A DNA stretch of 64,000 nucleotides from a virus (IMGVR_UViG_3300021964_000016); one strand, 5' to 3'; positions 27,530-60,203 are shown, numbered from the stretch's first letter. Made by a program: numbers and translations. Notes: generated by a model from the letters alone, not told the origin.

Positions 27530-27609
27530 CTCCTCAACCAGAAATACTATTATCGCTCAAAACAGGCACAAAGTAAAGTTTGAAAAACTTGAATAAAATC
27601 AACAACTTA
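27530..27609 (-). promoter_or_regulatory. Early sigma70-type promoter cassette 1 with upstream IHF-consensus box
   Basis: TTTACT-17-GATAAT; AATCAACAACTTA at 27597-27609. Confidence 0.8.
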
Positions 27610-27816
27610 CGAAAACACCTGTTCTACGTCTTTATGATCTACGATAACAGTGTCTCCCGCTGCCCTGTAGACGCAGAGATCCTTTATCTCGTGGTCGAGG
27701 CGGACGTGGTGAGAAACCCCACCACCGTATTTCACCCGAGACAGGGTGACTTTTCCGGAAACAGGGATGTCTCCGAGATAGGTTGCTTTGACTGATTCGC
27801 CTTCAAGATTCCACAT
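27607..27816 (-). CDS. Hypothetical early protein
   Basis: MWNLEGESVKATYLG...SRVKYGG; SD GAGGAG. Confidence 0.75.
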   Translation of the reverse strand: MWNLEGESVKATYLGDIPVSGKVTLSRVKYGGGVSHHVRLDHEIKDLCVYRAAGDTVIVDHKDVEQVFS

Positions 27817-27821
27817 AGTAT

Positions 27822-27902
27822 TCTCCTCAACCAGAAATACTATTATGCTATAATTCTTGCATAAAGGCAAGTAGTAAAAACTACTGTAAAATCAATAACT
27901 TA
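27822..27902 (-). promoter_or_regulatory. Early promoter cassette 2 with IHF-consensus box
   Basis: TTGCCT-17-CATAAT; AATCAATAACTTA at 27890-27902; leader AGTATTTCTGGTTGAGGAGA is identical to cassette 1. Confidence 0.8.
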
Positions 27903-28526
27903 CATTTTAGTTACAAATTCTACGTTTGGAGGTGTTTGTATTTTTGAGTTCGGATGCTTGTGGTACAGGAAAAATTTAATGTGCTTGAACTCGTTAAAGA
28001 TATTTGCCCAGATAGGACGCCAAATGTCGAGCAGGCGAAGGTTGTTTCTGCCAGTTCGATCACTGCTCAAGACGGTATCAGTATAAGACCTCATGTTGTG
28101 GTCAAAGATAGAGTCAAACCCAAACATATGAATCTCGTCAGGTTTGTGTCTAGTAGAAACGTAATGTGTCGCCATGTGCCCGCAATTAAAGTTTGTTGCG
28201 CCTTGATTGCCCTTTCCGGCATAACTAGGGACGTGCGTATAGAACTCTCTTATCTGCGCTGACTTCATCATATAAAAACTAGGACGAGAATCCATCCACG
28301 CTTTAGGACGATTACCGCAAACCCAATAGTATGCGTCAAGGTTTATAGAACCTTCGGTCAATGCTGCCATCATTTTAAAGTCGACAATACAAGTCGCGTA
28401 CACATTTTGTACTTCAAACGGAGGTTGGTTGCAAATTATAAGTTTGCCTTCTCTCTTGTATCTAACGGACTCTGGCATCATTTGTGCCATGTCGCCATTG
28501 CCTAAAATATAAACTTTCTTAGTCAT
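27900..28526 (-). CDS. Nucleotide-sugar-transferase-like protein (GT29/GT42/MptE-like Rossmann fold)
   Basis: VYILGNG...ICN...NCGHMA...IHMFGFD pattern. Confidence 0.5.
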   Translation of the reverse strand: MTKKVYILGNGDMAQMMPESVRYKREGKLIICNQPPFEVQNVYATCIVDFKMMAALTEGSINLDAYYWVCGNRPKAWMDSRPSFYMMKSAQIREFYTHVPSYAGKGNQGATNFNCGHMATHYVSTRHKPDEIHMFGFDSIFDHNMRSYTDTVLSSDRTGRNNLRLLDIWRPIWANIFNEFKHIKFFLYHKHPNSKIQTPPNVEFVTKM

Positions 28527-29187
28527 GATTCAATTGTCTACGAATTTCTTCTTTACCTTTCTGTCCCGTCCAGTGTTTTATAATTTGCTTAGACGGAACC
28601 CTCTCTTGTAGAATATCCAATCGCAAAACATTAAAGCGATGCGGTGCTTCTGAAATATGTATAACGCGGTTCATGGCGTCCTGATTCAACAACCAATACA
28701 ATGCTTCTTGATCTCCTCTGTGGATGCCTTCTTTTTTCACCTCATTAAACCAGTGTTCTAGGATAATAGGTCTCCCTTCAAACGCAACCACGCCAGTGTT
28801 GTACCACGGACCACAATTTCCCTGTGGTGTCCAAGGAGACCCATTGGCAGTCCAAGGATGATCTATCACAGCAGTAAGTTTATTATGCTCAACATAGTTA
28901 AAGATACCTGAAGGGTCTGCCATGATCTCGCAGTCAGTATCAACCCAACAGTATTTTCCTTGGAACCAATGCTTCATCTTCCACATCGTTTCTACTTTGG
29001 AAAACCAACCGTTTGACTGAACGCCAACCACAAAATTACAATTTTCCTTTGCAAACTTCTTACCTTCTGGCGAAAGTCCAAAGTCTGCGATAACTAGTTC
29101 GTCGTCGCAATGTTTGTGAAAGTTTTTGGTGAACCATGGTAATTGCCATTCTGTGTTTTTATCACAACCAGTTACAAAGTAATTCAT
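28519..29187 (-). CDS. GT-A glycosyltransferase (GT8/GT77-like)
   Basis: WVDTDCEI (DxD), YNTGVV, GDQEAL and IKHWTG. Confidence 0.8.
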   Translation of the reverse strand: MNYFVTGCDKNTEWQLPWFTKNFHKHCDDELVIADFGLSPEGKKFAKENCNFVVGVQSNGWFSKVETMWKMKHWFQGKYCWVDTDCEIMADPSGIFNYVEHNKLTAVIDHPWTANGSPWTPQGNCGPWYNTGVVAFEGRPIILEHWFNEVKKEGIHRGDQEALYWLLNQDAMNRVIHISEAPHRFNVLRLDILQERVPSKQIIKHWTGQKGKEEIRRQLNHD

Positions 29188-29831
29188 ATCAATTCATATG
29201 CCTCGCTGTAGTTGTGTTTTGCTTGACAACCCAGTTCTTTTTGTATGGTAGAAAATGAGTCGCGTGCCTCTACCGGCCAAGGATAGTATTCTTCTATAAA
29301 GTCAAAGTTGTTGTTGTTTATGAATATGTCAGTCGGCGCAGCGGCAACCTTCGCCTTTTCAATTAATTTTTCTGCTGCTTTTGGCGTCACTGCATATGCG
29401 TGCGCACCTGGAAGATATTGCTTTGATATGAGTTTATTTTTGCCTAGTGTGCTGGGTGCTATCCATCTACCATAAGAAGGACGCCCAAAAGACAATACCC
29501 CATCAAATTGAACATTAGGAATCTGGTCTACAAAATATGCATCATGTTCTAGAACAAGAAGAGTTTCTTTATCTTCTACTGATTTTTTCCAAAGTCTATA
29601 ATGAGAAGTGAAAGCGGCAATACAGTTGTCAAAGCGAGAATACTCTTCAACAAACCCTCTGGTTCCTATTCCTTCTTTTGAGAGGAATTCTCCAGGGTTA
29701 TCCTCTGGTGTAGTTGCTTCGAACTTTTCTACCTCAAATCCAACCCTACCAGCAGAACGAATACAACGCTCTGCTGCCTGTAAGGATTGCTCTATAGAAC
29801 TAATTGTGATCACATAACCTTTCATTATCAA
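29184..29831 (-). CDS. Glycosyltransferase family 25
   Basis: YVITI, AAFTSHYRLWKK, LVLEHDA, GAHAYAVTPKAAEKL and PTD. Confidence 0.85.
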   Translation of the reverse strand: MIMKGYVITISSIEQSLQAAERCIRSAGRVGFEVEKFEATTPEDNPGEFLSKEGIGTRGFVEEYSRFDNCIAAFTSHYRLWKKSVEDKETLLVLEHDAYFVDQIPNVQFDGVLSFGRPSYGRWIAPSTLGKNKLISKQYLPGAHAYAVTPKAAEKLIEKAKVAAAPTDIFINNNNFDFIEEYYPWPVEARDSFSTIQKELGCQAKHNYSEAYELI

Positions 29832-30550
29832 ATTCCTGTGGTTGTCGATACTCCTGATTGCACTACGGTGTAGTATGGATAGACAACCTTTAGATCAGTT
29901 GGAAATAGTTGACGACACATAATAGCGTCGTTTGGCCACATTCCAACTCTCTCCACCTCTTCCAAAAGTTTCTTGGCAAAATAAGGTTTAATGATGTATG
30001 CGCTGTTTCCAGCGATTCCCATCGGTAGAGGTGGGTCAGTCGGTTCATCGATGACGGGTACTCGTTGAATTCCCTCCCCGTACTTCTCGATTAAACTATG
30101 GAACAATCGTCCCTTGCGCGTATTACCTCGCGGGTCATTCAACCCGACTGCGCCCCATTTGTCGGAGAGATCCTCAACAGAGAATTCCCTCACGAACCTT
30201 GCATCGTGCTCAAGAACAAGAATTGGTCCTTCTTGTTCAGCACATAACTTCCATAATCGATAGTGACTTAATGCGCAAGCAACTACTCGATCTTGTGCTT
30301 TTGCTGGATAGTATTTCTTATACAACCCAGTCGTTAAATCTAATCCGTCTTGGTTAGGAGAACTTGGCCATGTCCAAGGAACCTGTTTGCCAAATACTTC
30401 CCCTGTATGATTATATATATTTTTCGGTTGTGTCGCTTCAAAGAACTCAACAGCGATATTCGCGCAATGTTCTTTCACAGATTCAGCGGCAACCTCTGCT
30501 CTACTCACAGAAGAATCATTGTCGCTCATTGTGATGATATATGCTCTCAT
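29828..30550 (-). CDS. Glycosyltransferase family 25
   Basis: AYIIT, ACALSHYRLWK, LVLEHDA, GNSAYIIKP and PND. Confidence 0.85.
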   Translation of the reverse strand: MRAYIITMSDNDSSVSRAEVAAESVKEHCANIAVEFFEATQPKNIYNHTGEVFGKQVPWTWPSSPNQDGLDLTTGLYKKYYPAKAQDRVVACALSHYRLWKLCAEQEGPILVLEHDARFVREFSVEDLSDKWGAVGLNDPRGNTRKGRLFHSLIEKYGEGIQRVPVIDEPTDPPLPMGIAGNSAYIIKPYFAKKLLEEVERVGMWPNDAIMCRQLFPTDLKVVYPYYTVVQSGVSTTTGI

Positions 30551-31110
30551 TTTTGCCCTATGAATACGTGATCTTTCCAACGAGCAGAGCGTTCAACTCC
30601 AGGAGATATCCACTGAGCATCCGGACTTTGTTCCCATTCTTTACCATCATCAATCCAATCAGCAATCACCTTTAAGTCGCACTCTTTTGCAATTGCTTTA
30701 AACGAGTCTCTATAAAATCGCCAACAGTCTGGGTTGTCGTGAGTGGGTCCACTAGAAGGTGCGATAATCACCATGTAATGCTCTGGTTTGAGAACTCGAG
30801 TCAATTCTGCTGCTGCCCTAAATGGATTGTAGATATGCTCAAATGTTTGCCCCGATACAATAAAGTCTATCGAATTGTCTTCAAAAGGTAACTCATACGG
30901 TCCAGGCATTTTGTGAGTAACATTACCACCCTCGTTTATATCTGCGATGTAATAGTTTTCGCAAACATCTTCGAATATTGGTCGATAAGTGCGGTCTTGT
31001 CCAGGTTTTATATTTCTACCGCCAAGGTCTAGTATCGTCAACCCACTACCGAGTCGAGAACCTAAAAGGTCTCTCGCCCTCTTCATATTTTCTCTAGAAG
31101 AAGGGTGCAC
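30547..31110 (-). CDS. Class I SAM-dependent methyltransferase (Methyltransf_11)
   Basis: ILDLGG, LPFEDNSIDFIVSGQTFEH, RVLKP and DCWRF. Confidence 0.88.
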   Translation of the reverse strand: MHPSSRENMKRARDLLGSRLGSGLTILDLGGRNIKPGQDRTYRPIFEDVCENYYIADINEGGNVTHKMPGPYELPFEDNSIDFIVSGQTFEHIYNPFRAAAELTRVLKPEHYMVIIAPSSGPTHDNPDCWRFYRDSFKAIAKECDLKVIADWIDDGKEWEQSPDAQWISPGVERSARWKDHVFIGQK

Positions 31111-31715
31111 TATAGAACCTCTATACTGAATTGTGTTGTTGCACCTTCCTGAATTATTTTCAAATTATACTTCTTCACAAATTCGTCAACAGCAGCAGTT
31201 ACACCTGCCTTGCCGTGTTTTTGAAATGGCCACTGATAGTCGTCGCCTAGAATCAGTCCGCCTGATTTAACAACTCTAAAAGAGTTTTCTAAGTCGCGCA
31301 GGCAACCTTCATATGAATGATCTCCGTCAACGTAGATCCAATCTAGAGAGTTTTCTTCTCGTTGGTCGAACCACTCGTCTGAAGACATTCGGTGTATATG
31401 TACGTTAGATAGTTCTTTAAACCTCTTTACGACTCCTCTATAGACCGAATCGTATTTTTGCTGAAACTGCTCTTCAGTATTCCCGCCACAAACACTAGAA
31501 TACCGTTGCAAATAGTTTTCATAAGATCCATGTTCCGTACTTTCTTTGTATGGTTCTATGCTCCAAGAATCTACAAGGTGAAGTTCTGCTGGGTTTTTAT
31601 TTGCAAAGTTTATAGAAGTGTTTCCCATCCACACCCCGATCTCTGCACCAACGGTTCCCTCTTTCACAAGATAGAGAATATCTTTTGAATCTCTGTTTGT
31701 AGTAGATCCCATCAT
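31110..31715 (-). CDS. Class I SAM-dependent methyltransferase (Methyltransf_24)
   Basis: GAEIGVWMG, LVDSW, LDWIYVDGDHSYEG, GGLILGDDY and GVTAAVDEF. Confidence 0.88.
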   Translation of the reverse strand: MMGSTTNRDSKDILYLVKEGTVGAEIGVWMGNTSINFANKNPAELHLVDSWSIEPYKESTEHGSYENYLQRYSSVCGGNTEEQFQQKYDSVYRGVVKRFKELSNVHIHRMSSDEWFDQREENSLDWIYVDGDHSYEGCLRDLENSFRVVKSGGLILGDDYQWPFQKHGKAGVTAAVDEFVKKYNLKIIQEGATTQFSIEVL

Positions 31716-31717
31716 AA

Positions 31718-32410
31718 CTATTTTCTCCAATAGTTCTTTTGTGCGCCAGTATCAAAGTCATACCCAAAGAAATCGATATCTTCTTTGTACCAGTCTGCCA
31801 CGATCTGAATTGTTTTGTCGGTGTAAATATCTCGGTAGGTGCCTTTATTCAAATCGGTGACGTTACGTGCTCGAGACATTTCTGGAATATCGAAGTATGC
31901 ACAAAGATCTTCGTTGAGATTTTCAAATCTCATCATGTCACATTTAAGATTGCCACTAGCATCGCAAACGTGATCGACAGCAGGAAACCAACCACGTATG
32001 GCGCGGTGCCAATAATAATCCTTTCCGCCCCACTCAAATCGTTCCTCGAGGAAAGACTCGAATGAGTCGATTCGGTGCTTACCAATTGGTTCTTTCTTTT
32101 CAACCTCAATGACTTTCTTTGCAAAGAAGTAACGAGATACAACTCTGTCCCAGGGATTGCGTGCCACGGCGAATGCTTGATATAAGTTTCTGACTGCTGG
32201 TTTGATATCTCTCCATCTCGCGTGTTCATTACCATGATGATCTCCACTTTTCCTCATCGCTTTATGAAGTTCTTTTGTGTATTGCTCTGACTTATGATTA
32301 TTTGGAGTTGCGACAACCAGATAAGGAGCAAGTTGAGGACTCTTGCGTATTGTCATTCCCGCACACTTGGGGATATGAATGAATAATCTTTTCTGATTCT
32401 CGAATACCAT
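31718..32410 (-). CDS. Sulfotransferase (Sulfotransfer_2 family)
   Basis: LFIHIPKCAGMTI (5'-PSB), ARNPWDRVVSRY (3'-PB), RFENL and YKEDIDFFGYDF. Confidence 0.88.
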   Translation of the reverse strand: MVFENQKRLFIHIPKCAGMTIRKSPQLAPYLVVATPNNHKSEQYTKELHKAMRKSGDHHGNEHARWRDIKPAVRNLYQAFAVARNPWDRVVSRYFFAKKVIEVEKKEPIGKHRIDSFESFLEERFEWGGKDYYWHRAIRGWFPAVDHVCDASGNLKCDMMRFENLNEDLCAYFDIPEMSRARNVTDLNKGTYRDIYTDKTIQIVADWYKEDIDFFGYDFDTGAQKNYWRK

Positions 32411-33198
32411 TACGCAATGTCCTTCATCAATGCTTCGACGTTTTCCCCACTATTTGGCAACTTGTCTTTCAAGAAGAAATGAACGAAATTTGCCTCAGGG
32501 ATATATTCGTCCTTTACACCTTTATATAGTGCGTTCCATTTCCAGTCCATATCTTTGATATTCAGACCTTCTTTTTTCACCCACCAATTTAAAAGTGTTT
32601 GGTCGGTAGACCATTTCCAGTTTCCCATACCATCAATAAATTTTTGAAACTCGGGTCGCCCTAAAAATTGTCTCGCGGTTTGTCCTTTGAAATAAGGAAC
32701 GATAGACTTATTCATAATCATCATTCCCATATTATAAAATTTGGCACCCCAGTCTTGCCAGTCCCAGTCAACATTACCGAGACTAGCATACTGCATATTG
32801 GAGTAGTTCTTTATCTTCATGGCGTATGCACCAGAGATTGGCATGTCTCGTTCGACGCATGCACCAAAGTCATGTTCTGTGCCAAAGTCTTCAAAAATAT
32901 TCGGTGCTTCCGAACGAACATAGATGTCGGCATCTATGATTGCAATTTGATCATAACCTTTCGCAAAATAATCAAATGCGTTTTCTTTTTCATATATTGG
33001 CAAAAATCCTCCGTGCTTTTCGTACGACTCTACGGAGCGATTAGTTACAAAGATATCTGGTTTGATTCTTAAGATTGGAGTTTTCTGTACGACATGATCA
33101 ATGCCGTACTTTTCGCAATAAGCGGCAACAGATTCTATGCAATGCTTATAGAGTTGAGAAGGTTTCCCAACAGATACTTGATAAATTAAACGTTTCAT
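32410..33198 (-). CDS. GT-A glycosyltransferase (GT8/GT34-like)
   Basis: IIDADIY, PNIF, YNMGMM, DQTLLN, KWNAL and FVHF. Confidence 0.82.
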   Translation of the reverse strand: MKRLIYQVSVGKPSQLYKHCIESVAAYCEKYGIDHVVQKTPILRIKPDIFVTNRSVESYEKHGGFLPIYEKENAFDYFAKGYDQIAIIDADIYVRSEAPNIFEDFGTEHDFGACVERDMPISGAYAMKIKNYSNMQYASLGNVDWDWQDWGAKFYNMGMMIMNKSIVPYFKGQTARQFLGRPEFQKFIDGMGNWKWSTDQTLLNWWVKKEGLNIKDMDWKWNALYKGVKDEYIPEANFVHFFLKDKLPNSGENVEALMKDIA

Positions 33199-33213
33199 AA
33201 TGATACCAAAGGG

Positions 33214-34767
33214 TTATGATGTAAAAACCTTTACCCCATATTTTCGTTCAAACTGAGCAGCGTGTTCAACAGTATTAACCATCGGCATGCGTCGAATATT
33301 CAAAGAAGTGTTTAACAACATAGGCACACCAGTTCTTTCATAATAGCATTCAATTATTTTCCGAAAAACCGATTTCGAATCTTTTGGCACTAATTGTACG
33401 CGACCAGTACCATCGACATGAGTAACAGAAGAATACTGGTGTTTTGCCTTAGCAGCATATTGCATCCATCGATTCATTGGTCCTTCGAAATAATCTGCTG
33501 CATGTTCTTCTAAAATAGCAGGAGCGAAAGGTCGATATTTCTGCCTACGTTTTACCATGTTAACTGTATCTTTAACATCGAATCTAACATCTGCAATAAG
33601 TGATCGGTTTCCATATGCACGATAACTAAACTCTGCTGGACCGTTTGCGACTCCGCAATATCGCTCTTTGAGGAGATGATCAACAACCATTTCTGGGTCT
33701 AAGTCTCCTTCGATACAGTGACCAAGATAAGGGTGTTCCCAATTAATTCTATCCTTGCCAGTATCTCTCATATAAGAAAAAGCAGCTGCACCGAGACTAG
33801 CACCTCCATCTCCAGGATTCAAATCTACCCACATATCGTCAAATAGTTTGCTCACCTCATTATTTGTGACAATATTCTGTGCAACTCCGCCGGAATAGCA
33901 AAGTTTGCTTCCGTACTTTCTTGCCTTTTTCATAAACTCTAAAATAACGAGGGTTGTACATGCTTGAAGAGATGCAGCTGCATCCTCTACAGATTTACAT
34001 TCTTTCATAAGCATCTGTACGATTTTTCGCAAGTACATTAACTTTAAGTCATAGAAATGTTTCCAGTTCACGTAACTTCCTTCTTCCCTTTTTTGTATTG
34101 CTTCTTCAATCAACCATTCGGGAATAGAACTAAACATCTCATAAGTTTTTTCAGTATGAGTAGGTTCGCCATAACTCGACAATCCCATGATCACATATTC
34201 ATCTTCGTTTGCGGTCAAACCGAGTCCGCAACCTTCTGTAAAGGCAGCATAAAGATATCCGATAGATTTAGGGAATGTTATCTCTTCAATAATATTAAAA
34301 TTATGATCAAGAATTGCACCAGAACGATGCTCCCCAATACCATCAATTGTTACAATAACGCAATCTTCTTTATCGAAAGATTTTGGTCTTGTGGCAAAAG
34401 CAGCATATGCGTGCGAAATATGGTGCCCAGTAGGTTTTGCGTTTATTTTTTGAGTATACATCGAAGGATGTATGTTCTGTATAGGGCAATCCAATTTGAA
34501 AATATCAGGAAACTTTTTCCGAGTTAATGCAACTTCACCTCCACGAAGTTCTTCTCTCGCCTCCCAATCGTCATTCATTGTAACGATTAGGTTTTCTCCT
34601 TTATTCGGGTGATACAATAAGTCCCACAAACCAGAGGGGATTCTAGAATCGTGCTTCACTTGAGTGAATCTTTCTGTCTGACTCGCAAAGACAATATTGC
34701 CTTGGTCATCAATCAACGTCATGCCAGCATCGTGGAGTTGTGCTCCACTAATACCCAAATATTTCAT
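33214..34767 (-). CDS. Carbamoyltransferase (NodU/CmcH family)
   Basis: HDAG, ERFTQVKH, HHISHA, DGIGE, GGVAQN, PGDGG, GNRSLIAD, RPFAP, HVDGTGRVQ and LLNTSLN. Confidence 0.93.
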   Translation of the reverse strand: MKYLGISGAQLHDAGMTLIDDQGNIVFASQTERFTQVKHDSRIPSGLWDLLYHPNKGENLIVTMNDDWEAREELRGGEVALTRKKFPDIFKLDCPIQNIHPSMYTQKINAKPTGHHISHAYAAFATRPKSFDKEDCVIVTIDGIGEHRSGAILDHNFNIIEEITFPKSIGYLYAAFTEGCGLGLTANEDEYVIMGLSSYGEPTHTEKTYEMFSSIPEWLIEEAIQKREEGSYVNWKHFYDLKLMYLRKIVQMLMKECKSVEDAAASLQACTTLVILEFMKKARKYGSKLCYSGGVAQNIVTNNEVSKLFDDMWVDLNPGDGGASLGAAAFSYMRDTGKDRINWEHPYLGHCIEGDLDPEMVVDHLLKERYCGVANGPAEFSYRAYGNRSLIADVRFDVKDTVNMVKRRQKYRPFAPAILEEHAADYFEGPMNRWMQYAAKAKHQYSSVTHVDGTGRVQLVPKDSKSVFRKIIECYYERTGVPMLLNTSLNIRRMPMVNTVEHAAQFERKYGVKVFTS

Positions 34768-34785
34768 AACGAACCTATGAATTAA

Positions 34786-35238: not shown

Positions 35239-35239
35239 T

Positions 35240-36183: not shown

Positions 36184-36233
36184 TAATGGTTCTCCATAAA
36201 AGTAGTATATCACTGGGGGCAGCGACAGATTCT

Positions 36234-36261
36234 ATTATACTTATTTCTTTTAAAAAGTAAA
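36234..36261 (-). promoter_or_regulatory. Sigma70-type promoter for the phoH-lysozyme-transferase operon
   Basis: TTTACT-16-TATAAT immediately after a terminator-like hairpin. Confidence 0.65.
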
Positions 36262-36270
36262 GCAAAACGA

Positions 36271-36292
36271 TGCCCTATTCGAAAATAGGGCA
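36271..36292 (-). terminator. Terminator-like hairpin
   Basis: TGCCCTATT-TTCG-AATAGGGCA followed by TCGTTTTGCTTT. Confidence 0.7.
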
Positions 36293-36312
36293 CGAGATAC
36301 TGATCACCTTCC

Positions 36313-36489: not shown

Positions 36490-36510
36490 AGGCGACTCCT
36501 TGGTTAAAAT

Positions 36511-36963: not shown

Positions 36964-36981
36964 AATCTCCTCGCTACAATA

Positions 36982-37413
36982 TTATATAGGATTATCAACA
37001 TTACTACTTAGGTGTTTTCTAGAGATACGACAATTTATAATTCCATTGTAGTATTCGTCATTTAAAAGGACTTCTCTATCGAACTGCTCTTTTGCTTCGT
37101 AGTACGAGCAGTCACCTTTGGTTTTACACAACCTGATTATTTCTCGTTTGAAAGCATCGGCACCTTTCTGTTCTAATAAAAGTTTTACCGCTTCAGAACT
37201 ACCGAAATAACCTTTCCAGTCTGATTCTACTCGCATATGTTTCCTACGCTTTCGACTTTTAGTCACTGGCAGTGTTTTCTTTTTGTGAAAAAATTTTTTG
37301 CCGACATACTTCATACCTGTTTCTATTTCAGTTATGACGTACACAAACCCTGTCCATTCTTGGAGCGATTCGTATTCTGGGTCAAAAACTTTTCCTTCGT
37401 AGTGCCAAGTCAT
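36982..37413 (-). CDS. GIY-YIG family endonuclease
   Basis: GFVYVITE..TGMKYVGKK, SDWKGYFGSS, FKREII and YYNG. Confidence 0.8.
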   Translation of the reverse strand: MTWHYEGKVFDPEYESLQEWTGFVYVITEIETGMKYVGKKFFHKKKTLPVTKSRKRRKHMRVESDWKGYFGSSEAVKLLLEQKGADAFKREIIRLCKTKGDCSYYEAKEQFDREVLLNDEYYNGIINCRISRKHLSSNVDNPI

Positions 37414-37535
37414 GCTTCTACTGGAGACGCGCACATAGGACAATACGCTGGTTCAGCATCACAATTTTCATCTAAAATTATTTCACAGTGAGATTCGCAG
37501 ACGTCGCAAATAACGTCAAACACATACTCTTCCAT
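37410..37535 (-). CDS. Small zinc-ribbon protein, 41 aa (not in ORF track)
   Basis: MEEYVFDVICDVCESHCEIILDENCDAEPAYCPMCASPVEA; two CxxC motifs; ATGA overlap. Confidence 0.75.
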   Translation of the reverse strand: MEEYVFDVICDVCESHCEIILDENCDAEPAYCPMCASPVEA

Positions 37536-52305: not shown

Positions 52306-52326
52306 TACAGATCCTTTTATATGGAT

Positions 52327-52761: not shown

Positions 52762-52771
52762 TTCTCAGTCC

Positions 52772-53095
52772 TCACCAAGTTCCCAAAACATCGCCCATTT
52801 TGTTTCCTGCCTCGTAGATCTGACGACCAATGGCATTGGTGATCGTAGACTCGACTTCACGTGTGCCTGTTTTGACGGTGTAATCGAAAATACGCTCGAC
52901 CATATTGGGGTCGCGTTTGTTTCGCATACGATAAGAACGGGGAACGTAGAGAGTCCCGTTGACGACAACGGGTTCCTGAATACTCAGGTCCGTCTCTTCA
53001 ATGGTCTCATAAGGTTGCCCGTTAAAGACGTGCGTCTCGGCGAGGGAACCAACTGAAAATACTACCAAAAATGCTAATAAAAATGCCTGTTTCAT
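52772..53095 (-). CDS. Secreted early protein of unknown function
   Basis: Signal peptide MKQAFLLAFLVVFSVGSLA; first gene after early promoter 3. Confidence 0.7.
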   Translation of the reverse strand: MKQAFLLAFLVVFSVGSLAETHVFNGQPYETIEETDLSIQEPVVVNGTLYVPRSYRMRNKRDPNMVERIFDYTVKTGTREVESTITNAIGRQIYEAGNKMGDVLGTW

Positions 53096-53103
53096 AGTTA
53101 CAA

Positions 53104-53183
53104 TCTCCTATCCAACAGATATATTATCGCCTAAATGGGGTCCAAACACAACTGTAAAAAACCCTAATAAGATCAATAACTTA
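53104..53183 (-). promoter_or_regulatory. Early promoter cassette 3 with IHF-like box
   Basis: TTGTGT-17-GATAAT; GATCAATAACTTA at 53171-53183. Confidence 0.78.
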
Positions 53184-53196
53184 CGGTTATATGCAT

Positions 53197-53210
53197 TATT
53201 TATATAAATA
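53197..53210. promoter_or_regulatory. Overlapping back-to-back late promoters (TATTTATATAAATA)
   Basis: TATAAATA on plus at 53203-53210 and on minus at 53197-53204. Confidence 0.72.
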
Positions 53211-53273
53211 GAAGTGGTGAGGTGATTTAGTTATAAGTATGGATTCGGTCGTTTCACCAGAAGAGGAAAGTTT

Positions 53274-53669
53274 ATGACGGACGAAAGAATATCCGAAGTC
53301 GAGACTAAACTTTATACACACGAAGGTAGAATCAAATCTACCGAGCAAAACATTCGTCAGATTACTGATAACATCGACAGGATAGAATCTCATCTTCTCA
53401 GGGGTTCTTCAAAACCACTTCCAGTCAGCACCATCGTTTCCATAATTGTGGGGTTCTTGGGTGCCTTTGGAACAACATTTTTTGCCATGACAAATTACGT
53501 CGATCTTCAGGTTGATAACCTGAGAGAATCCGACAGAGCAAACGAAGAAAGGATAATAGAAAATCATAGTCATATTAAAGAATTCAATTCAGAAATTCGA
53601 GAACGACTTGGTCGCCTCGAAGAAAGATCTAAGTCTCATGAAGAGGACATAAGAGAACTTAGAAAATAA
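53274..53669 (+). CDS. Single-TM coiled-coil membrane protein (holin-like candidate)
   Basis: Coiled coil, TM (TIVSIIVGFLGAFGTTFFAM), coiled coil; has its own late promoter, SD GAGGA and terminator. Confidence 0.6.
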   Translation: MTDERISEVETKLYTHEGRIKSTEQNIRQITDNIDRIESHLLRGSSKPLPVSTIVSIIVGFLGAFGTTFFAMTNYVDLQVDNLRESDRANEERIIENHSHIKEFNSEIRERLGRLEERSKSHEEDIRELRK

Positions 53670-53674
53670 ATCTC

Positions 53675-53694
53675 GTGGGGCAATTCTGCCCCAC
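53675..53694. terminator. Hairpin between convergent genes (bidirectional terminator)
   Basis: GTGGGGCA-ATTC-TGCCCCAC. Confidence 0.75.
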
Positions 53695-53701
53695 ACTCTT
53701 C

Positions 53702-53769
53702 GGTTACAACCCCATCTATCTGGTGGACGATAGACCAATCAGGACAACCTGCATCGTGCCCTTGTAACC
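53702..53769. ncRNA. Putative structured RNA (three-way junction)
   Basis: GGTTACAA/TTGTAACC encloses TCTATC/GATAGA and (on minus) GGGCA/UGUCC stems. Confidence 0.35.
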
Positions 53770-54027
53770 TCACCCTTCCCTCTTCTTAACCTTTTCCCTT
53801 TGCTTGAACAGATAATCTTGATGATCTAGATTAATTGGATCCTTGTCAAAAGCATCCATCATCTTACACATGTCTTCATAAAGTTCTTCAGAAATATCGC
53901 CATGCGCAGATATAGGATTCGCCGAATAGAATTTGATGCTGCCATCCTCTTCATAATACACTTCATGTATTTGAAACCCACCACCAACAACTGATGGTCT
54001 ATGACATACCCTGTAATTCCAACTCAT
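53770..54027 (-). CDS. Hypothetical protein
   Basis: MSWNYRV...IHEVYYEEDGSI motif, common in phages. Confidence 0.7.
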   Translation of the reverse strand: MSWNYRVCHRPSVVGGGFQIHEVYYEEDGSIKFYSANPISAHGDISEELYEDMCKMMDAFDKDPINLDHQDYLFKQREKVKKREG

Positions 54028-54691
54028 ATTGGTCTCTTAAATCTATGAACTCTCCGATCCAATCATCACGGTGCTCAATGAACACCTGACACTCTCCTTC
54101 CTGAGAGACAACTACCGTAACCAACTGCGTGATTGGTTGCCCTGTCATCTCTTCAAACATTACAGCATAAGCAGATTCCTGCTTAAAGTAATTATATATT
54201 CTTGAACGGGTTTTTCGCTTTGCGGAAGTTTTCCAGTCAATCACAGAAAGAATACCGTCGAACTCGGCAATCATGTCAACAGTGCCTGCTGCACGCAGAT
54301 GATTCGAATACATGAGACCTTCTACCACTCGAATATTGTCAATCCGTTTATCGGCGACTTGCTTCAAAAGAAAGAACATCTCGAGAGCATTGGGCATCAC
54401 TTTGCCTTCTCCCCTCTCCTTGTTCAGGCAATAATCCTCGATCAGTTGGTGAACTGACGTGCCTCGAGTAGATGCCTGCGTGGATATCTTCTGCGCAGTT
54501 TCTTTTCCTACTCTTTTCTGCCATTCAAACAATGCTCGTTTGGTTTTCTTACAAGAACTCAGAATGGTAGTGACGGAAGGGTAGGGAATTGATGCCGTTC
54601 CATCCTCCATCACATAGTGGCGTTTGCCCTCTACATTAACACGTTTGATCTTTGGCAAATCTACCAAATTTAAATTGAATGTCTTGTTCAT
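53999..54691 (-). CDS. PD-(D/E)XK exonuclease
   Basis: YPSVTTIL, RGTSVHQLIE, AGTVDMIA, IDWKTS and QESAYAVMFEE; start reassigned to 54691. Confidence 0.88.
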   Translation of the reverse strand: MNKTFNLNLVDLPKIKRVNVEGKRHYVMEDGTASIPYPSVTTILSSCKKTKRALFEWQKRVGKETAQKISTQASTRGTSVHQLIEDYCLNKERGEGKVMPNALEMFFLLKQVADKRIDNIRVVEGLMYSNHLRAAGTVDMIAEFDGILSVIDWKTSAKRKTRSRIYNYFKQESAYAVMFEEMTGQPITQLVTVVVSQEGECQVFIEHRDDWIGEFIDLRDQYELELQGMS

Positions 54692-54695
54692 AATA

Positions 54696-55172
54696 CTATC
54701 CTGATTTTTGCCCTCTGGTTCCGCGCAGAGTCCATTCAGGATCAACGTGGTGCGTGATAACCTTGTTTCTTTCCAATAAAGGTATGCCGCTCTCAATGTG
54801 CCCTGTAAACTTCTCACCATAATAAACCTTCTTGATTCCACTGGCAACGATCATCCTCGCGCACTTAACGCAAGGAGAATGGGTCACAAACATCAATGCA
54901 CCTTCAGCAGAGCAGTTTGATCTCGCAAGTTTGGCAATTGCGTTTTCTTCAGCGTGCAATACCTCTTCTTTGGTCCACATAATGTTGCCCTGAGCATCGT
55001 GCTCTTCGCAACAATTGTCCTCGCCTGGAAGTGTTCCGTTGTATCCAACAGAAATGATCGCGCCAGTTTTTGGATCAACAATAATCGCGCCAACCTTCAA
55101 CCGTTTCGCCGTAGAGCAATTGGCAAAAGATTCTGCTGTCTCCATATAAGCATTGGTCAGTTTAGTCTTCAC
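54696..55172 (-). CDS. cd: dCMP deaminase
   Basis: KVGAIIV, GYNG, HAEENAI and THSPCVKC. Confidence 0.92.
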   Translation of the reverse strand: MKTKLTNAYMETAESFANCSTAKRLKVGAIIVDPKTGAIISVGYNGTLPGEDNCCEEHDAQGNIMWTKEEVLHAEENAIAKLARSNCSAEGALMFVTHSPCVKCARMIVASGIKKVYYGEKFTGHIESGIPLLERNKVITHHVDPEWTLRGTRGQKSG

Positions 55173-55489
55173 TAGTTTCTCCGCATTGTAGCGATATCTT
55201 TCATTTGCTGTTCGTCAATAATCGGCACAGCGTTTGACTTGTGCATGGTGCCAATACCTTTCACCAAAGTGCCAGTGTATTGTTTCTTCTCTGGGGCAGC
55301 ACACACGCCACTGCCTGCGCTGTCAGCAGACTTATACACAACACCTTCATCGCGGCGATACGGTGCAGGACTGGACTGCATCGGAGTAAAAGGTGGGGGT
55401 GTATATTTCTTGAACGTTTCACCTTTCGCTTTCTTTTTCTTGATCTTGCGACCAGAGAAATCGTGACGCATTGAACCGTAGACTGGCAT
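55172..55489 (-). CDS. Conserved T4-like hypothetical protein
   Basis: YTGTLVKGIGTMHKSNAVPI. Confidence 0.75.
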   Translation of the reverse strand: MPVYGSMRHDFSGRKIKKKKAKGETFKKYTPPPFTPMQSSPAPYRRDEGVVYKSADSAGSGVCAAPEKKQYTGTLVKGIGTMHKSNAVPIIDEQQMKDIATMRRN

Positions 55490-55620
55490 TATACCCCCCC
55501 TTCCTCGTAAACTATAAGTCCAAAATCTATTTCTACTTCGGTTACTTTATAACCTAGTGCTCTGAGTCTCTTGATCTCGCTTTTAATCGCGGTTAGGGTG
55601 TTGTCTACTACTGTAATCAT
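55489..55620 (-). CDS. Hypothetical early protein, 43 aa (not in ORF track)
   Basis: MITVVDNTLTAIKSEIKRLRALGYKVTEVEIDFGLIVYEEGGV; SD GAGGAG; TAATG coupling. Confidence 0.7.
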   Translation of the reverse strand: MITVVDNTLTAIKSEIKRLRALGYKVTEVEIDFGLIVYEEGGV

Positions 55621-55627
55621 TAGGCGT

Positions 55628-55708
55628 TCTCCTCAACCAGAACACCTATTATGCCCTAAACTCAGTCAAAAGACAACCCTGAAAAATCCTAATAGAATCA
55701 ATAACTTA
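55628..55708 (-). promoter_or_regulatory. Early promoter cassette 4 with IHF-consensus box
   Basis: TTGTCT-17-CATAAT; AATCAATAACTTA at 55696-55708; leader TTCTGGTTGAGGAGA. Confidence 0.8.
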
Positions 55709-55939
55709 CGTGAGGTAGAATGGATATATGTCGAGCATATCGATTATACAAAATAAATCTTCCTTGCATAGTTGTCGACTTTGCACAGTGAGTTCGGTCC
55801 CCTTTTCATTAATGGCAAAAGCATCGCCTTGTGTCAACAAACACAGAACTGCTCTGATCGGAGTTTTGTCTCCGGTGAAACTCCAGATGGTTGATCCGTC
55901 TTTTTGTTTCCGTTCTTCAATATTGAGTTCGTTTTTCAT
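55706..55939 (-). CDS. Hypothetical protein
   Basis: ATGA-coupled; ends in the promoter box. Confidence 0.6.
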   Translation of the reverse strand: MKNELNIEERKQKDGSTIWSFTGDKTPIRAVLCLLTQGDAFAINEKGTELTVQSRQLCKEDLFCIIDMLDIYPFYLT

Positions 55940-56535
55940 CTAGAGACTGGTCTTCCAAAGTTAAAAGAAATTGCTATCCTAGACCGCGAATACGGTATTT
56001 TCTTTTGAACTGCTATTGAATGTTCTAACCAAGGTGGCCAAACTAAAATGTCTCCAGTTTCTGGTTGGTGTTCATATCGCGTCAAGTTGGGGGGAGCATA
56101 CGGTTCCGACATCATAATGGTATTCAATGCTGGGTTCCTGAACCTTATTGGGGTTGAATCTGAATCAGCGTATGGGTAATATGTTCCTGCTACTGCTGCG
56201 CCAGGATGTTGGTGCAGGCAATGACTTTCTCCTGTGGTGTATACAGAAAACCAGTAGTACACGTCATAGTTTTCAAATTTTTCAACAGGAGCATCTCGCA
56301 TTCTCAACCATTCCAGTGCCATATGTTTTGCCGCTGATTCAAATTCTTTCCTGAACGGCATACCTTCCACCACTTCTTTATTATACTTATTGTCATAGTA
56401 TGTGGTGTATGATTCTATGTTTTTTAATTTATTTCTTACATACGACTCAATCTGTTTATGGTCTAAATCTAGAGACCTTTTAAATATAGGGACATGGAAT
56501 AGACCAATCTTTTCTTTCTTGCCAGAGAAAGTCAT
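55936..56535 (-). CDS. 2OG-Fe(II) oxygenase-like (TIGR02466 type)
   Basis: HCLHQHP...AGTYY...PETGDILVWPPWLEHSI...RIAISFN. Confidence 0.85.
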   Translation of the reverse strand: MTFSGKKEKIGLFHVPIFKRSLDLDHKQIESYVRNKLKNIESYTTYYDNKYNKEVVEGMPFRKEFESAAKHMALEWLRMRDAPVEKFENYDVYYWFSVYTTGESHCLHQHPGAAVAGTYYPYADSDSTPIRFRNPALNTIMMSEPYAPPNLTRYEHQPETGDILVWPPWLEHSIAVQKKIPYSRSRIAISFNFGRPVSR

Positions 56536-56774
56536 TAGAAATCTTCGCCATGTTTGTATTGGTTTCTAATATCTGATAACGGGTCAAATTCAACGTTATC
56601 TTTGGTTTTGATTATTGCCTCTTCTTCACCATTGACAACTCGTTCCATATACCCAATTAACAAGTTTGCCATAGTAACATCCATCTCTTGTGCTTTTTTC
56701 TTGAATTGACCATGAAGGTACTCAGGGACTCGAATATTAAACATACGAGTGTTACCCTTACGATATTCAGACAC
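56535..56774 (-). CDS. Ribbon-helix-helix-like DNA-binding protein
   Basis: MFNIRVPEYLHGQFKKKAQEMDVTMANLLIGYM; GTG start at 56774 with SD AGGAG. Confidence 0.65.
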   Translation of the reverse strand: MSEYRKGNTRMFNIRVPEYLHGQFKKKAQEMDVTMANLLIGYMERVVNGEEEAIIKTKDNVEFDPLSDIRNQYKHGEDF

Positions 56775-56775
56775 C

Positions 56776-57345
56776 TTATGCTCCTTGAGTTGCCCACCAT
56801 TCAGGAGTGGGTCGTTTTGACCAAACAGCGAAACTTGCCTTATCTTCTTTGTAGAAGTTTCGATAAGACTCGACAACGTCGACTTCGCCATCATTATCTT
56901 TTACAATGCAGTGCGGGAACTGCTTCATGGCAACATATGGCATTTTAAACTTACCTGACTTCAGTCCTCTAGGAGGAGTTGCCAGTCTCTCTGCCAACTT
57001 CTGGTGGCACGTATGCACTTTGCCATATCTGTATGTATACTCTTCGCCGAGAGCAACCCAGAGTTCGTACAACCACATGTACTGCTCGACGTTCTCGCGA
57101 CACCAGATAGCAGATGGATGACTTACGTGACACGCCTTATAGATCAGGTCTTCATCGTCACCTTCAAGTCGCCAACGTTTGACTCGCTGCCCGCGTCTTC
57201 CTCTGCCTATGTATTCTTCACCGTCAATGACACGGTGAGCAGTAGAAAGGAGTTGGGGATACTCTACGTTCATCTTGACCACGTGCTTGTCGACGTGTTC
57301 CATTGCTGACGCAATAGGAGATTTTTGTACAGGAAATATGTTCAT
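56776..57345 (-). CDS. DenV-like (pyrimidine dimer DNA glycosylase family) protein
   Basis: MNIF...DKHVVKM..E..QLLSTAH, HPSAIW, EYTYRYGKVH and YRNFY. Confidence 0.75.
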   Translation of the reverse strand: MNIFPVQKSPIASAMEHVDKHVVKMNVEYPQLLSTAHRVIDGEEYIGRGRRGQRVKRWRLEGDDEDLIYKACHVSHPSAIWCRENVEQYMWLYELWVALGEEYTYRYGKVHTCHQKLAERLATPPRGLKSGKFKMPYVAMKQFPHCIVKDNDGEVDVVESYRNFYKEDKASFAVWSKRPTPEWWATQGA

Positions 57346-57353
57346 AATATAAA

Positions 57354-58403
57354 TTAACCTCTAGTGCTTAACCAAGGGTTGTTCCTTATAGGTTCAGTTG
57401 GATCTTCTTCCAAGGCAATGCCATGCCCATCGTCGATCACTTCCATATCTTCCATCTCCTCTTCGGGTGGAAGGTCTTCAATCTCTTCGTATTTGCTCAT
57501 GACATTGGCAGCGTCATCTACTGCGCTCGGTTTATCTGGGAACGATTTTCGTAATGGTTCGTCAACTATTGGTTGTTCTTTAGGTATTATTTCGTCAACG
57601 TCCATAACCCTGCTCGGATCAACTTTGAGGTTGCCGTCATCGTAAAACATTTTAGAGAGTTTCTTTTTGTTTAAGTCTCGAGTTGAGACCAGAAGCAAGG
57701 CAATTGCAAGTGGATCAAATACAAAGATCAATAGGATAATAACAAACCTGACCGCCTCATCAAAGTAGTCTTGTGCTTCATCGCCGTAGATCAGTTCCGC
57801 GATATATTTTAGGGGTCCAACTTCCACCTCAATAGATAACTGTTCTTGCTTGAGCGGAGCGAGTGCATCTTGTATTTCTTCGATAGATTGGATCGCATTA
57901 TCGATCTGCGAGTTAAGACTTTCCCTCTCTCCTCTTTGCGCCTCGCGGACCGCGATCGCACCATCCTTCCCCCTGATTCGATCATAATCGATAAGTGTCT
58001 GTACTGATTCGTCAAGTTGAGAAAGGACGCTCTCTGCATCTGTGATAACACGTTGCTGATTCGCAATTCGCCTTTCCAAGTTCTGGATTTGAAGCGCATT
58101 GTTTCCTCCTACTGATACTGAGTGTTCAAGGTGTGCTTTGGAAAGATACCCAAAGATTCCTAGCGAAGTGATGAACATAAGCACAACCACTGCGCTCGTT
58201 AGATAAACTTTCAACCAAAGTTGTAACCCTTTCCAGTTAGAATGCAACCAAGAGGCAGTTACAAGTTTACCGACTTCCAGCACTCCACCCATTATGGCAA
58301 TAGGTACTGCTGCACCTGCAAAGATTGCCATGAGTCCGACAATAGAATACCATGCCGCAACCCCAGCAATCGACAGGGAAGTTAAGAGTGTTACCCAGAA
58401 CAT
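57354..58403 (-). CDS. Multi-TM coiled-coil membrane protein
   Basis: Three N-terminal TMs, LEVGKLV, GIFGYLSKAH, coiled coil, EVGPLKYIA and IFVFDPLA. Confidence 0.75.
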   Translation of the reverse strand: MFWVTLLTSLSIAGVAAWYSIVGLMAIFAGAAVPIAIMGGVLEVGKLVTASWLHSNWKGLQLWLKVYLTSAVVVLMFITSLGIFGYLSKAHLEHSVSVGGNNALQIQNLERRIANQQRVITDAESVLSQLDESVQTLIDYDRIRGKDGAIAVREAQRGERESLNSQIDNAIQSIEEIQDALAPLKQEQLSIEVEVGPLKYIAELIYGDEAQDYFDEAVRFVIILLIFVFDPLAIALLLVSTRDLNKKKLSKMFYDDGNLKVDPSRVMDVDEIIPKEQPIVDEPLRKSFPDKPSAVDDAANVMSKYEEIEDLPPEEEMEDMEVIDDGHGIALEEDPTEPIRNNPWLSTRG

Positions 58404-58675
58404 TAATCCTCGCTTGTAGTCTCCGCGATCATTCCGATCTTTTTAAGATCCTCGACTTCGCCAGACATTACAAAGGTTCTCCCATCGGGAATCATCACGT
58501 GGATAAAAGTCTTCAGGATGCGGTAATATTTAGGATGAGGAAAGGGTCGCAATTCAACATGGACAACTTCGCCATACAACTTATCCGAAGGAGAATTCGG
58601 GGGGTACCAAGAAACCTTACGTCCTGGAACATCAACTGGGGGCGGAATTACTTTCTTCTTTACTCTAGGCATCAC
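58403..58675 (-). CDS. Hypothetical protein
   Basis: Coupled ORF in the operon. Confidence 0.6.
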   Translation of the reverse strand: MMPRVKKKVIPPPVDVPGRKVSWYPPNSPSDKLYGEVVHVELRPFPHPKYYRILKTFIHVMIPDGRTFVMSGEVEDLKKIGMIAETTSED

Positions 58676-58862
58676 TCGGGGTTCCTTCTATGATCGTGCC
58701 GTCTTTGTTCTGGACATAATTGCCAGTGTTATAAGAATCCATTGTCGAAACATACATCTCTGTATTTCCGATGTTACGGATTAGAAATTCTTGACCAATT
58801 TTATCAGCGTACCAATAAGAACTGTCGCTGCACTTTTCAATACGAACATACAACTCTTTCAT
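58665..58862 (-). CDS. Hypothetical protein
   Basis: Coupled ORF; YWYADKIGQEF. Confidence 0.6.
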   Translation of the reverse strand: MKELYVRIEKCSDSSYWYADKIGQEFLIRNIGNTEMYVSTMDSYNTGNYVQNKDGTIIEGTPSDA

Positions 58863-59131
58863 TACATGTATGCCTCGAGGGAATTGTAGGAAACATTATC
58901 CCAAGGATCTGGGGTGAATGGTTTGATGAACTCGGTGGGGATTGGTTCTTTCAGTTTGGTAAAAGACCGCCACCTTTTGCTGAACTGCTTGGGTGCGCTG
59001 AACTTCTGCCAATGTTCATCACCAAACTTACGAATTGCGATCAAGCGACCGTCTTCCTGCAACAAGTAATCCATGTTGGTCACTCGGTGCTTCGCTTTTG
59101 CCCAATCGGTTTTTTCACGTAGCATTTGCAT
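58862..59131 (-). CDS. Hypothetical protein
   Basis: TAATG-coupled; LREKTDW...FSKRWRSF. Confidence 0.6.
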   Translation of the reverse strand: MQMLREKTDWAKAKHRVTNMDYLLQEDGRLIAIRKFGDEHWQKFSAPKQFSKRWRSFTKLKEPIPTEFIKPFTPDPWDNVSYNSLEAYM

Positions 59132-59370
59132 TATGCAGATTCCTTAAAAGTTTGTCCAATAGGTTTTTGTTTCCTATTGTTCCAAATATAATAAATTTTC
59201 GGGACATCGTTGTCATCAACCATCAACGCAGACTTAAAAGACTTTCCGTCAATATACAACGGACCTTCCTTGATCGCCACAATAGAATTAGGATATTCTA
59301 TACTATCTGATGGTGCAAAGTCAACTATTTTTTCTTTGCTGAAAGCAGAATCAAAATACAAAAATTTCAT
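59131..59370 (-). CDS. Hypothetical protein
   Basis: Coupled ORF. Confidence 0.55.
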   Translation of the reverse strand: MKFLYFDSAFSKEKIVDFAPSDSIEYPNSIVAIKEGPLYIDGKSFKSALMVDDNDVPKIYYIWNNRKQKPIGQTFKESA

Positions 59371-59528
59371 TCAACACACCTCATGTGATAGGGGGCATTA
59401 ACCAATATCGCAGAACACTCCTTTTTTGGCGAGCGTTCTGGGAATTGTATTTCAGAGCAAAATAGGGCATAGGCGATTATCCCATACCCCAAGAGTAAAA
59501 GGTCTTTGTAATACTCCTTCTTCTTCAT
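59367..59528 (-). CDS. Small membrane protein
   Basis: MKKKEYYKDLLLLGYGIIAYALFC...; start reassigned to 59528. Confidence 0.5.
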   Translation of the reverse strand: MKKKEYYKDLLLLGYGIIAYALFCSEIQFPERSPKKECSAILVNAPYHMRCVE

Positions 59529-59887
59529 TACAGGTACTCTGGACCAGTCCAGCGTACCCATGAGAAGTCACCCTGAAGGATGTTGCCACGCGGTTTGTTG
59601 CGCGCTGGTGCCGACCAACCTGCTGGCTTGAGAATATCTCCTGCCTTGAAGTTCGCCTTGCCATCCTTCTCTGGTTCGTCTTCCTTGACGATGAAACCCC
59701 AAACCATCGTTTGGTTGCCCAACTTCTTGGTCACCTTGATGTACTTTCGCCCTTCTTCAAAGTCGATGCCAGCGTGGAACAGGTCAACTTGACTTCTGTC
59801 CTCTGGATTAGGTCGCGCACGACGAGCATAGTCGTCAACGATCCAGTCTACGAGGTTATCCAGTGCTTCATTCATTTGATCGGTCAT
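59528..59887 (-). CDS. Conserved phage early protein
   Basis: GRKYIKV, VWGFI, GDILKPAGWSAPARNKPRGNI and WTGPEYL. Confidence 0.78.
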   Translation of the reverse strand: MTDQMNEALDNLVDWIVDDYARRARPNPEDRSQVDLFHAGIDFEEGRKYIKVTKKLGNQTMVWGFIVKEDEPEKDGKANFKAGDILKPAGWSAPARNKPRGNILQGDFSWVRWTGPEYL

Positions 59888-60117
59888 TAGAAGTTCTCCT
59901 TGTTACCAGTCTTCAGATCACGCATTTCAAGCACCACGTAATCCACGTCCACATTCTGAGTCGCGAGTCCCGCCCAAGTGCAGGCATCGTCCCATGACAT
60001 GAAACCCATCTTGTCAGTTTGGGTGGTGCCTTCGAGAGTTCCGCTCAGGAAGTATCGGTCGAACTCCACTTGACAAGGGTACGCGCTCACAGGGGTATTC
60101 ACTACAAAGTTAGACAT
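59887..60117 (-). CDS. Hypothetical early protein
   Basis: MSNFVVNTP...; SD AAGGAG behind early promoter 5. Confidence 0.7.
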   Translation of the reverse strand: MSNFVVNTPVSAYPCQVEFDRYFLSGTLEGTTQTDKMGFMSWDDACTWAGLATQNVDVDYVVLEMRDLKTGNKENF

Positions 60118-60122
60118 ATCAC

Positions 60123-60203
60123 TCTCCTTAACCATTACAGATATTATCCCGCAAATGGGGTCCAAACACAAGTTTGAAAAAAGTGAATAAAATCAATAAC
60201 TTA
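60123..60203 (-). promoter_or_regulatory. Early promoter cassette 5 with IHF-consensus box
   Basis: TTGTGT-17-GATAAT; AATCAATAACTTA at 60191-60203; TTGTGTTTGGACCCCATTT is shared with cassette 3. Confidence 0.8.

Follow-up and report, generated by a model that had tools for sequence, protein, structure and literature searches.

Putative early promoters of an uncultured T4-like phage share an upstream module with the architecture of an IHF site

The virus sequence IMGVR_UViG_3300021964_000016, of which a stretch of 64,000 nucleotides (nt) was analysed (here called the window), carries five copies of an element in which a 13-nt box precedes a host-type promoter at an invariant distance. The box and a T-run behind it show the layout of a binding site for integration host factor (IHF), and the sequences suggest that phages of this group employ a DNA-bending protein of the host at their host-type promoters. 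We consider it probable, if well short of certain, that these promoters are shaped by host IHF docked at about −72 to −38 and also act as seams between gene cassettes.

Results

The pattern RATCAAYAACTTA matches the window at exactly five places (27597, 27890, 53171, 55696 and 60191), all on the plus strand, against a shuffle expectation of 0.01, and five matches were reached in none of 100 shuffles. Allowing up to two mismatches gave 8 matches where 10.5 were expected, the three additional ones being at background level. All long open reading frames (ORFs) of the window are on the minus strand and the five boxes are antisense to the genes, so they are read as TAAGTTRTTGATY on the gene strand. 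In this direction all five copies show the same order of TAAGTTRTTGATY, 19 nt, a −35 hexamer (TTKNNT), 17 nt, a −10 hexamer (SATAAT), 25–27 nt and ATG, with a T5–6 run inside the 19-nt linker, its end 8–9 nt from the box, and a Shine-Dalgarno sequence before the ATG; the individual hexamers are listed in Table 1. An initial annotation of the window had placed the five boxes at these positions, each 19 nt upstream of a −35/17-nt/−10 promoter with an A-tract in the linker, a short leader and a strong Shine-Dalgarno sequence, and once the strand is turned this description holds for every copy, the A-tract being the T-run of the gene strand.

The stretch from the box to the Shine-Dalgarno sequence is conserved throughout among the five copies, and in four of them (A, B, D and E) the upstream ORF terminates at the TAA of the box. 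Box C alone departs from the W of the IHF consensus, having G at this first position, and is also the sole box with a Dam-type GATC, which lies at its promoter-proximal end. A generic sigma-70 scan lists three of the five boxed promoters, each with 9 of 12 matches, and its totals (51 vs 43.2 and 36 vs 35.1 in shuffles) show no excess. We read the five elements as putative promoters from their conservation and position, and as early ones from their host-type hexamers. Among the RNA contigs (run X20, share 0.13, twelve pieces) one piece spans the cassette at 53171; these contigs carry no readable starts.

As the upstream stop codon falls into the box in four of the five copies with the T-run behind it, and as a GC hairpin lies directly upstream in several viral copies, the element might be thought to act in RNA, where it would terminate the upstream gene or form a structure at its 3' end. 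We give this explanation hardly any probability. Better folding than in shuffles is seen for a single window copy (z −4.6), the other four having z values of +0.3 to +1.4, and the five have no structure in common, for which reason a shared RNA hairpin or terminator was rejected.

According to the accessible text of PMC1874591, the canonical IHF site has four elements, which are WATCAA, a TTR four bp on, two AA steps nine bp apart and, in some sites, an A4–6 run in the 5' half. In the window the core reads AATCAA in four sites and GATCAA in one, TTA stands four bp 3' of the core in all five, and an A5–6 run on the plus strand ends 8–9 bp before the W of the core, again in all five. Four sites have an AA step nine bp ahead of the AA of ATCAA and one has TG there, the kink register relative to WATCAA being taken as the usual one. 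The conservation of the TTA has a second reason, since it doubles as the stop codon in four of the five copies.

The same arrangement recurs in related phages. The 27-nt composite (box, NTA, 6 N, T5) was found at at least 125 loci in viral contigs, many of them followed by a −35/−10 pair at an equal distance. For the gp32 protein 559 relatives were found in viral contigs, and in 80 of these loci (707 kb) boxes with at most one mismatch occur 33 times on the gene strand vs 5 times on the opposite strand. Four related records, all of them T4-like by their major capsid gene, contain 9, 5 and 10 exact boxes in the three near-complete ones, each set on a single strand, and 1 in the fourth, with 0 for the reversed-pattern control. 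For 42 non-redundant exact boxes from the window and its relatives the −10 starts 55 nt from the start of the box in 31 cases and 54 nt from it in 8. The other 3 lack a −10, and two of these are upstream members of tandem box pairs. Such tandem boxes, exactly 28 nt apart and before one promoter, are seen in L333 and L344 (record G003), the repeated unit being the box plus its T-rich run, which suggests that the docking module duplicates as a unit. In another T4-like lineage (L329, L333, L344, L351 and many more, for example L035, L047 and L091) the ATG follows the −10 of the boxed promoters after 6–7 nt, which looks like leaderless mRNAs, and the offset from box to −10 is 54.

In order to avoid choosing sites by their box, we also used a promoter-anchored search (−35, 17 nt, NATAAT, Shine-Dalgarno sequence, start codon), which gave 58 non-redundant promoter-like sites. 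Scored for the eight fixed positions of TAA....TTGAT at the phage distance, these sites are bimodal, with 8/8 in 30, 7/8 in 4 and 5 or fewer in 24, and the score at control offsets never exceeded 6. In the relatives the box is retained although its linker to the −35 drifts and little more than a T-rich stretch is left of the T-run; of 34 box-bearing promoters, 30 preserve TTGAT. Loss of the T-run in distant relatives is allowed for an IHF site, because only some canonical sites possess the A-run (accessible text of PMC1874591). The four positions between the fixed parts (N4) vary among GTTR, GTCT, GTCA, CCTA, GTGA and CTTG, and TAA and TTGAT persist. In the sequences compared, changes are mainly found in the four consensus-free positions, as the IHF consensus would predict, with GTTR still standing at 19 of 22 promoter-linked sites. 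The shorter 16-nt pattern (box plus YTA) is near chance level for the viral collection and gives no unbiased sample of sites; among its 124 non-redundant viral sites T5 at the fixed offset is found in 18, putting the T-run far above chance.

These data also bear on the idea that the alpha C-terminal domains of RNA polymerase contact the upstream region directly as an extended UP element, in the manner of T4 early promoters, which are described as UP/−35/TGn/−10 in the accessible text of PMC2988021. The T-run, at about −45 to −41, does lie inside the −40 to −60 UP zone. The box, however, at −67 to −55 (assuming a start 7 nt after the −10), is partly beyond this zone, and it has invariant G positions and the pattern WATCAA-N4-TTR instead of plain A/T richness, so that only the T-run fits an element defined as A/T-rich from −40 to −60 without specific G/C. 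Furthermore, it is the T-run that decays in relatives and the box that stays, and no TGn precedes the −10 in the three promoters listed by the sigma-70 scan. An UP element is accordingly an improbable account of the whole region.

The composite is not confined to phages. In bacterial contigs, sampled with one genome per species, it was found at at least 120 loci, and 80 titled rows among the matches listed comprise 61 Alpha-, Beta- or Gammaproteobacteria, 4 of 'delta' type, 11 others, three of them apparently phage contigs that were binned into genomes, and 4 unnamed, with group labels assigned by reading of the names. The 13-mer was counted against a control that is reversed and not complemented, in even genome samples with the centre genome left out. 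It occurs 141 vs 21 times in 150 genomes of a Burkholderiales-type order (6.7-fold), 31 vs 7 times in 80 Alphaproteobacteria and 175 vs 125 times in 150 Bacteroidia (174 vs 121 without genome G253). The 15 box sites of one Burkholderiales genome are unrelated AT islands in flanks of 49–67% GC, and 13 of them have a T-rich run at +22 to +27. In the Bacteroidia genome G160 the 13-mer is found at the same distance (about 108–121) from four contig ends (C7, C29, C45 and C48); the Bacteroidia count is inflated because the 13-mer in G160 belongs to a repeated element. A BLAST search of E. coli genomes with the 39-nt site found nothing, which is uninformative at such a query length.

Among the matches listed, 47 of 124 non-redundant viral composite sites are followed by a −10 at the phage offset, vs 1 of 120 bacterial ones, which indicates that the docking module stands by itself and has been joined to promoters by phages. 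By these counts the module is probably the site of a conserved, mainly proteobacterial cellular protein, and IHF is the known protein with a matching consensus. Of the IHF reading in the initial annotation it is the sequence part that is supported, by the complete IHF-site architecture, the rigid promoter distance in the window and across a large T4-like clade and the enrichment of the word in proteobacterial chromosomes. Its functional part, in which early transcription would be tuned by host IHF and might respond to growth phase, stands as a prediction.

Two further groups of sites in bacterial contigs were observed. Seven Pelagibacteraceae genomes (L129, L138, L141, L144, L190, L229 and L239) have the composite beside a gene start, apparently at one orthologous place. 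L128, L182 and L183, labelled Actinobacteriota and Thermoplasmata, carry phage-type boxed promoters, and the context shown for L182 and L183 agrees with that of the viral loci L119 and L071; all three are probably phage contigs binned into the genomes so labelled.

Around the promoters the gene content changes. In five related loci including L489–L492 the boxes are located at orthologous junctions, and the ORFs directly behind them are unrelated or different in number, although this comparison covers five loci only. As far as these sequences go, the cassettes mark junctions where related phages differ in small genes. It might then be asked whether the box is a mere homology patch of a mobile cassette like the promoter-early stem-loop (PeSL) elements, with no protein docked. 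The conservation of the box-to-Shine-Dalgarno stretch, the orthologous junctions with different small ORFs behind them and the shuffling mediated by PeSL cassettes in T4-type phages (accessible text of PMC2839356 and PMC4122927) would all agree with it. Yet linker and spacer drift and the eight fixed positions remain intact in 30 of 34 box-bearing promoters, and the module occurs without a promoter in bacteria and, among the matches listed, in 77 of 124 viral sites, which the spread of a cassette leaves unexplained. We regard a homology patch without a bound protein as having a low probability.

As for the origin of the proposed binder, the initial annotation had also offered a phage factor with the same site. 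This possibility is weakened, as the HU/IHF family (PF00216, Bac_DNA_binding) was found in none of the 74 window ORFs and in none of the four related T4-like records, two of which are rated 100% complete, with a positive control found in 9 of 14 genomes. Because of this result we propose a host protein as the binder.

The window itself encodes a gp32-type single-strand DNA-binding protein, baseplate wedge and hub proteins and NrdAB, and by Pfam a late-transcription coactivator, a T4 baseplate protein, PhoH, Hsp20 and several 2OG-Fe(II) oxygenases. With this T4-type protein set it belongs to a T4-like myovirus. Its DNA occurs in estuary, marine and freshwater metagenomes; it has no near relative among cultured phages, where a megablast search with 6 kb gave no match and BLAST of a 78-nt cassette gave short chance-level matches only.

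The window also carries a second set of promoter-like words. The word TATAAATA, which we take to be the T4 late-promoter word, occurs 11 times (between 5780 and 53210) vs 2.7 expected, with 10 of the 11 on the gene strand; examples are 23662–23669, 18344–18351 and 53197–53204. This separate set indicates that the boxed promoters form a class distinct from the late type. One copy of TATAAATA precedes the gp32-type gene and follows a strong C6/G6 hairpin that has a T7 run, and another is found 14 nt upstream of box C on the gene strand, so the gene behind box C may have both a late-type and a host-type promoter. Inspection of gaps of at least 70 nt between minus-strand ORFs revealed only one further, unboxed sigma-70-like promoter, at 36214–36312, where a 10-pair terminator hairpin is followed by TTTACT-16-TATAAT. 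A SegE-type GIY-YIG homing-endonuclease gene (Pfam E 6e-34) is present among small genes at 36985–37443.

Table 1: Coordinates of the five boxed cassettes in the window. Sequences are given as read on the gene (minus) strand.
Feature	Position	Strand	Remarks
IHF-type box A (TAAGTTGTTGATT)	27597..27609	-	TAA is the stop of a 69-aa ORF (27607-27816)
T5 run, cassette A (A-tract element of the IHF-type site)	27583..27587	-	9 nt from box
Promoter core A	27549..27577	-	TTTACT, 17 nt, GATAAT
Shine-Dalgarno GAGGAG to ATG, cassette A	27521..27535	-	160-aa ORF 27041-27523
IHF-type box B (TAAGTTATTGATT)	27890..27902	-	TAA is the stop of a 208-aa ORF (27900-28526)
T5 run, cassette B	27876..27880	-	
Promoter core B	27842..27870	-	TTGCCT, 17 nt, CATAAT
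Shine-Dalgarno GAGGAG to ATG, cassette B	27814..27828	-	69-aa ORF 27607-27816; single-gene cassette between boxes B and A
IHF-type box C (TAAGTTATTGATC)	53171..53183	-	G at W; contains GATC; no stop codon role
T6 run, cassette C	53156..53161	-	
Promoter core C	53123..53151	-	TTGTGT, 17 nt, GATAAT
Shine-Dalgarno TAGGAG to ATG, cassette C	53093..53110	-	107-aa ORF 52772-53095, hydrophobic N-terminus
IHF-type box D (TAAGTTATTGATT)	55696..55708	-	TAA is the stop of a 77-aa ORF (55706-55939)
T5 run, cassette D	55682..55686	-	
Promoter core D	55648..55676	-	TTGTCT, 17 nt, CATAAT
Shine-Dalgarno GAGGAG to ATG, cassette D	55618..55634	-	43-aa ORF 55489-55620
IHF-type box E (TAAGTTATTGATT)	60191..60203	-	TAA is the stop of a 214-aa ORF (60201-60845)
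T6 run, cassette E	60177..60182	-	8 nt from box
Promoter core E	60143..60171	-	TTGTGT, 17 nt, GATAAT
Shine-Dalgarno AAGGAG to ATG, cassette E	60115..60129	-	76-aa ORF 59887-60117

Discussion

In the model that we propose, each element would be a composite early-promoter cassette of about 95 bp, consisting of a 27-bp IHF-type docking module, a sigma-70-type promoter, a short leader and a strong ribosome-binding site, with the docking module fused to the promoter at a fixed helical phase. In IHF orientation the module would read as an A5–6 run, 8–9 bp and WATCAA-N4-TTA. With a start placed 7 nt after the −10, the box would span −67 to −55 and the T-run −45 to −41, and the whole 34-bp IHF site would extend from about −72 to −38, where it would abut the −35 hexamer and sigma region 4 and fill the usual UP zone. 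Host IHF would bind the injected DNA and produce a U-turn centred near −55, which would bring the DNA beyond −75 back toward RNA polymerase and in this way set the strength of the promoter. By analogy with lambda pL and Mu Pe, the effect of IHF would most likely be an activation by pre-bending that raises promoter strength, where its timing and direction are inferred.

Several points weigh against this model. The loose consensus WATCAANNNNTTR is found 9 times in the window vs 5.4 expected, and 8 of 100 shuffles reach 9; as it is not enriched on its own, it is the identical make-up of the five 13-mers and their fixed position that carry the signal. That the host of this phage makes IHF is assumed, with the enrichment of the word in proteobacterial genomes, as compared with Bacteroidia, as indirect support. 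The small excess in Bacteroidia puts the enrichment of the 13-mer beyond Proteobacteria, and the 77 viral composite sites mentioned above are not coupled to a promoter at the phage spacing. Since the site abuts the −35 and covers the normal zone of the alpha C-terminal domain of RNA polymerase, IHF could also repress, and repression or insulation could be its role at these promoters. Finally, N4 is GTTR in 19 of 22 promoter-linked sites, which is tighter than the IHF consensus requires. This excess conservation could reflect a protein reading all 13 bp, or a shared descent of the cassettes.

The first of these two possibilities leads to the explanation that the box is the site of another sequence-specific protein which reads the whole 13-mer, be it an early regulator that the phage encodes or injects from the virion, or some nucleoid protein of the host that is not IHF. 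Besides the GTTR, it can draw on the fact that no Pfam family is assigned to most small ORFs of the window, among which there could be a DNA-binding protein, and that the phage sequence covered amounts to 64 kb. But the 13-mer with its T-run forms isolated AT islands in GC-rich Burkholderiales and is enriched 6.7-fold there over the reversed control, which indicates a conserved cellular protein. Moreover, N4 does change in more distant relatives where TAA and TTGAT stay, and the IHF elements are present at the published spacing (PMC1874591, accessible text), the AA step in four of the five sites. Thus we judge another protein to be unlikely, though an alternative that has to be reckoned with, and docking of host IHF is the reading that we keep.

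More tentatively, and with considerable doubt on our side, host-type promoters may generally carry the portable 27-bp module upstream throughout a large and abundant aquatic T4-like radiation on Proteobacteria. There IHF, which reads DNA shape via the minor groove, and not UP elements or a phage activator, would be the early cofactor, and the modules would double as exchange seams.

T4 is the textbook lytic phage that takes over the host RNA polymerase with its own factors, and IHF levels vary with growth state. If the model is true, the first minutes of infection in widespread estuarine, marine and freshwater T4-like phages would depend on a host nucleoid protein, and phage success would be linked to host physiology in slow-growing natural populations. 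For uncultured phage genomes, a box followed by 19 nt and a −35 would then be a simple marker for early promoters and cassette borders, and it would also hint at a proteobacterial host.

Among known systems, the PeSL elements are similar in that they too repeat an early promoter of sigma-70-like type, which has an AT-rich region upstream and a Shine-Dalgarno sequence and stands before small variable genes, at points where the gene content of relatives differs (accessible text of PMC2839356 and PMC4122927). In a PeSL, a terminator stem-loop lies just upstream, whereas four of the five copies described here show no significant fold and in four of five the upstream stop codon is inside the box; IHF is not mentioned in the accessible text of either PeSL paper. 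The early promoters of T4 likewise combine host RNA polymerase and sigma-70, good −35 and −10 hexamers, extra upstream information and a short leader (accessible text of PMC2988021). They have UP elements and TGn, whereas our cassettes have an IHF-type site instead and, in the three promoters listed by the scan, no TGn. The accessible text of this T4 transcription review does not mention IHF, and neither does a paper on pelagimyophages. A literature search on IHF together with T4-like phages or early promoters, covering main texts, found no description of such an element. The exact 13-mers occur in the papers searched only incidentally, in papers that by title and abstract concern neither IHF nor phages.

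A lytic phage with a protein of this family at its early promoters is the Bacillus phage SPO1, a myovirus with modified-thymine DNA and a Gram-positive host, whose phage-encoded HU/IHF-family protein TF1 binds preferentially to certain sites at early promoters. The phages described here differ in that neither the window nor the four related records contain such a gene and that a host protein is proposed. A host protein acts at lambda pL and Mu Pe, sigma-70 phage promoters of temperate phages which are stimulated by IHF from single sites at about −80 to −90; for lambda, Giladi et al. reportedly described an IHF-stimulated promoter in 1998. As in these two cases, a site for host IHF would stand upstream of a strong host-type phage promoter, and a bend would help RNA polymerase to use upstream DNA. 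Unlike them, the predicted site abuts the −35 (centre at about −55), is repeated at 5–10 promoters per genome in a rigid 54–55-nt phase and is found in T4-like phages of lytic type.

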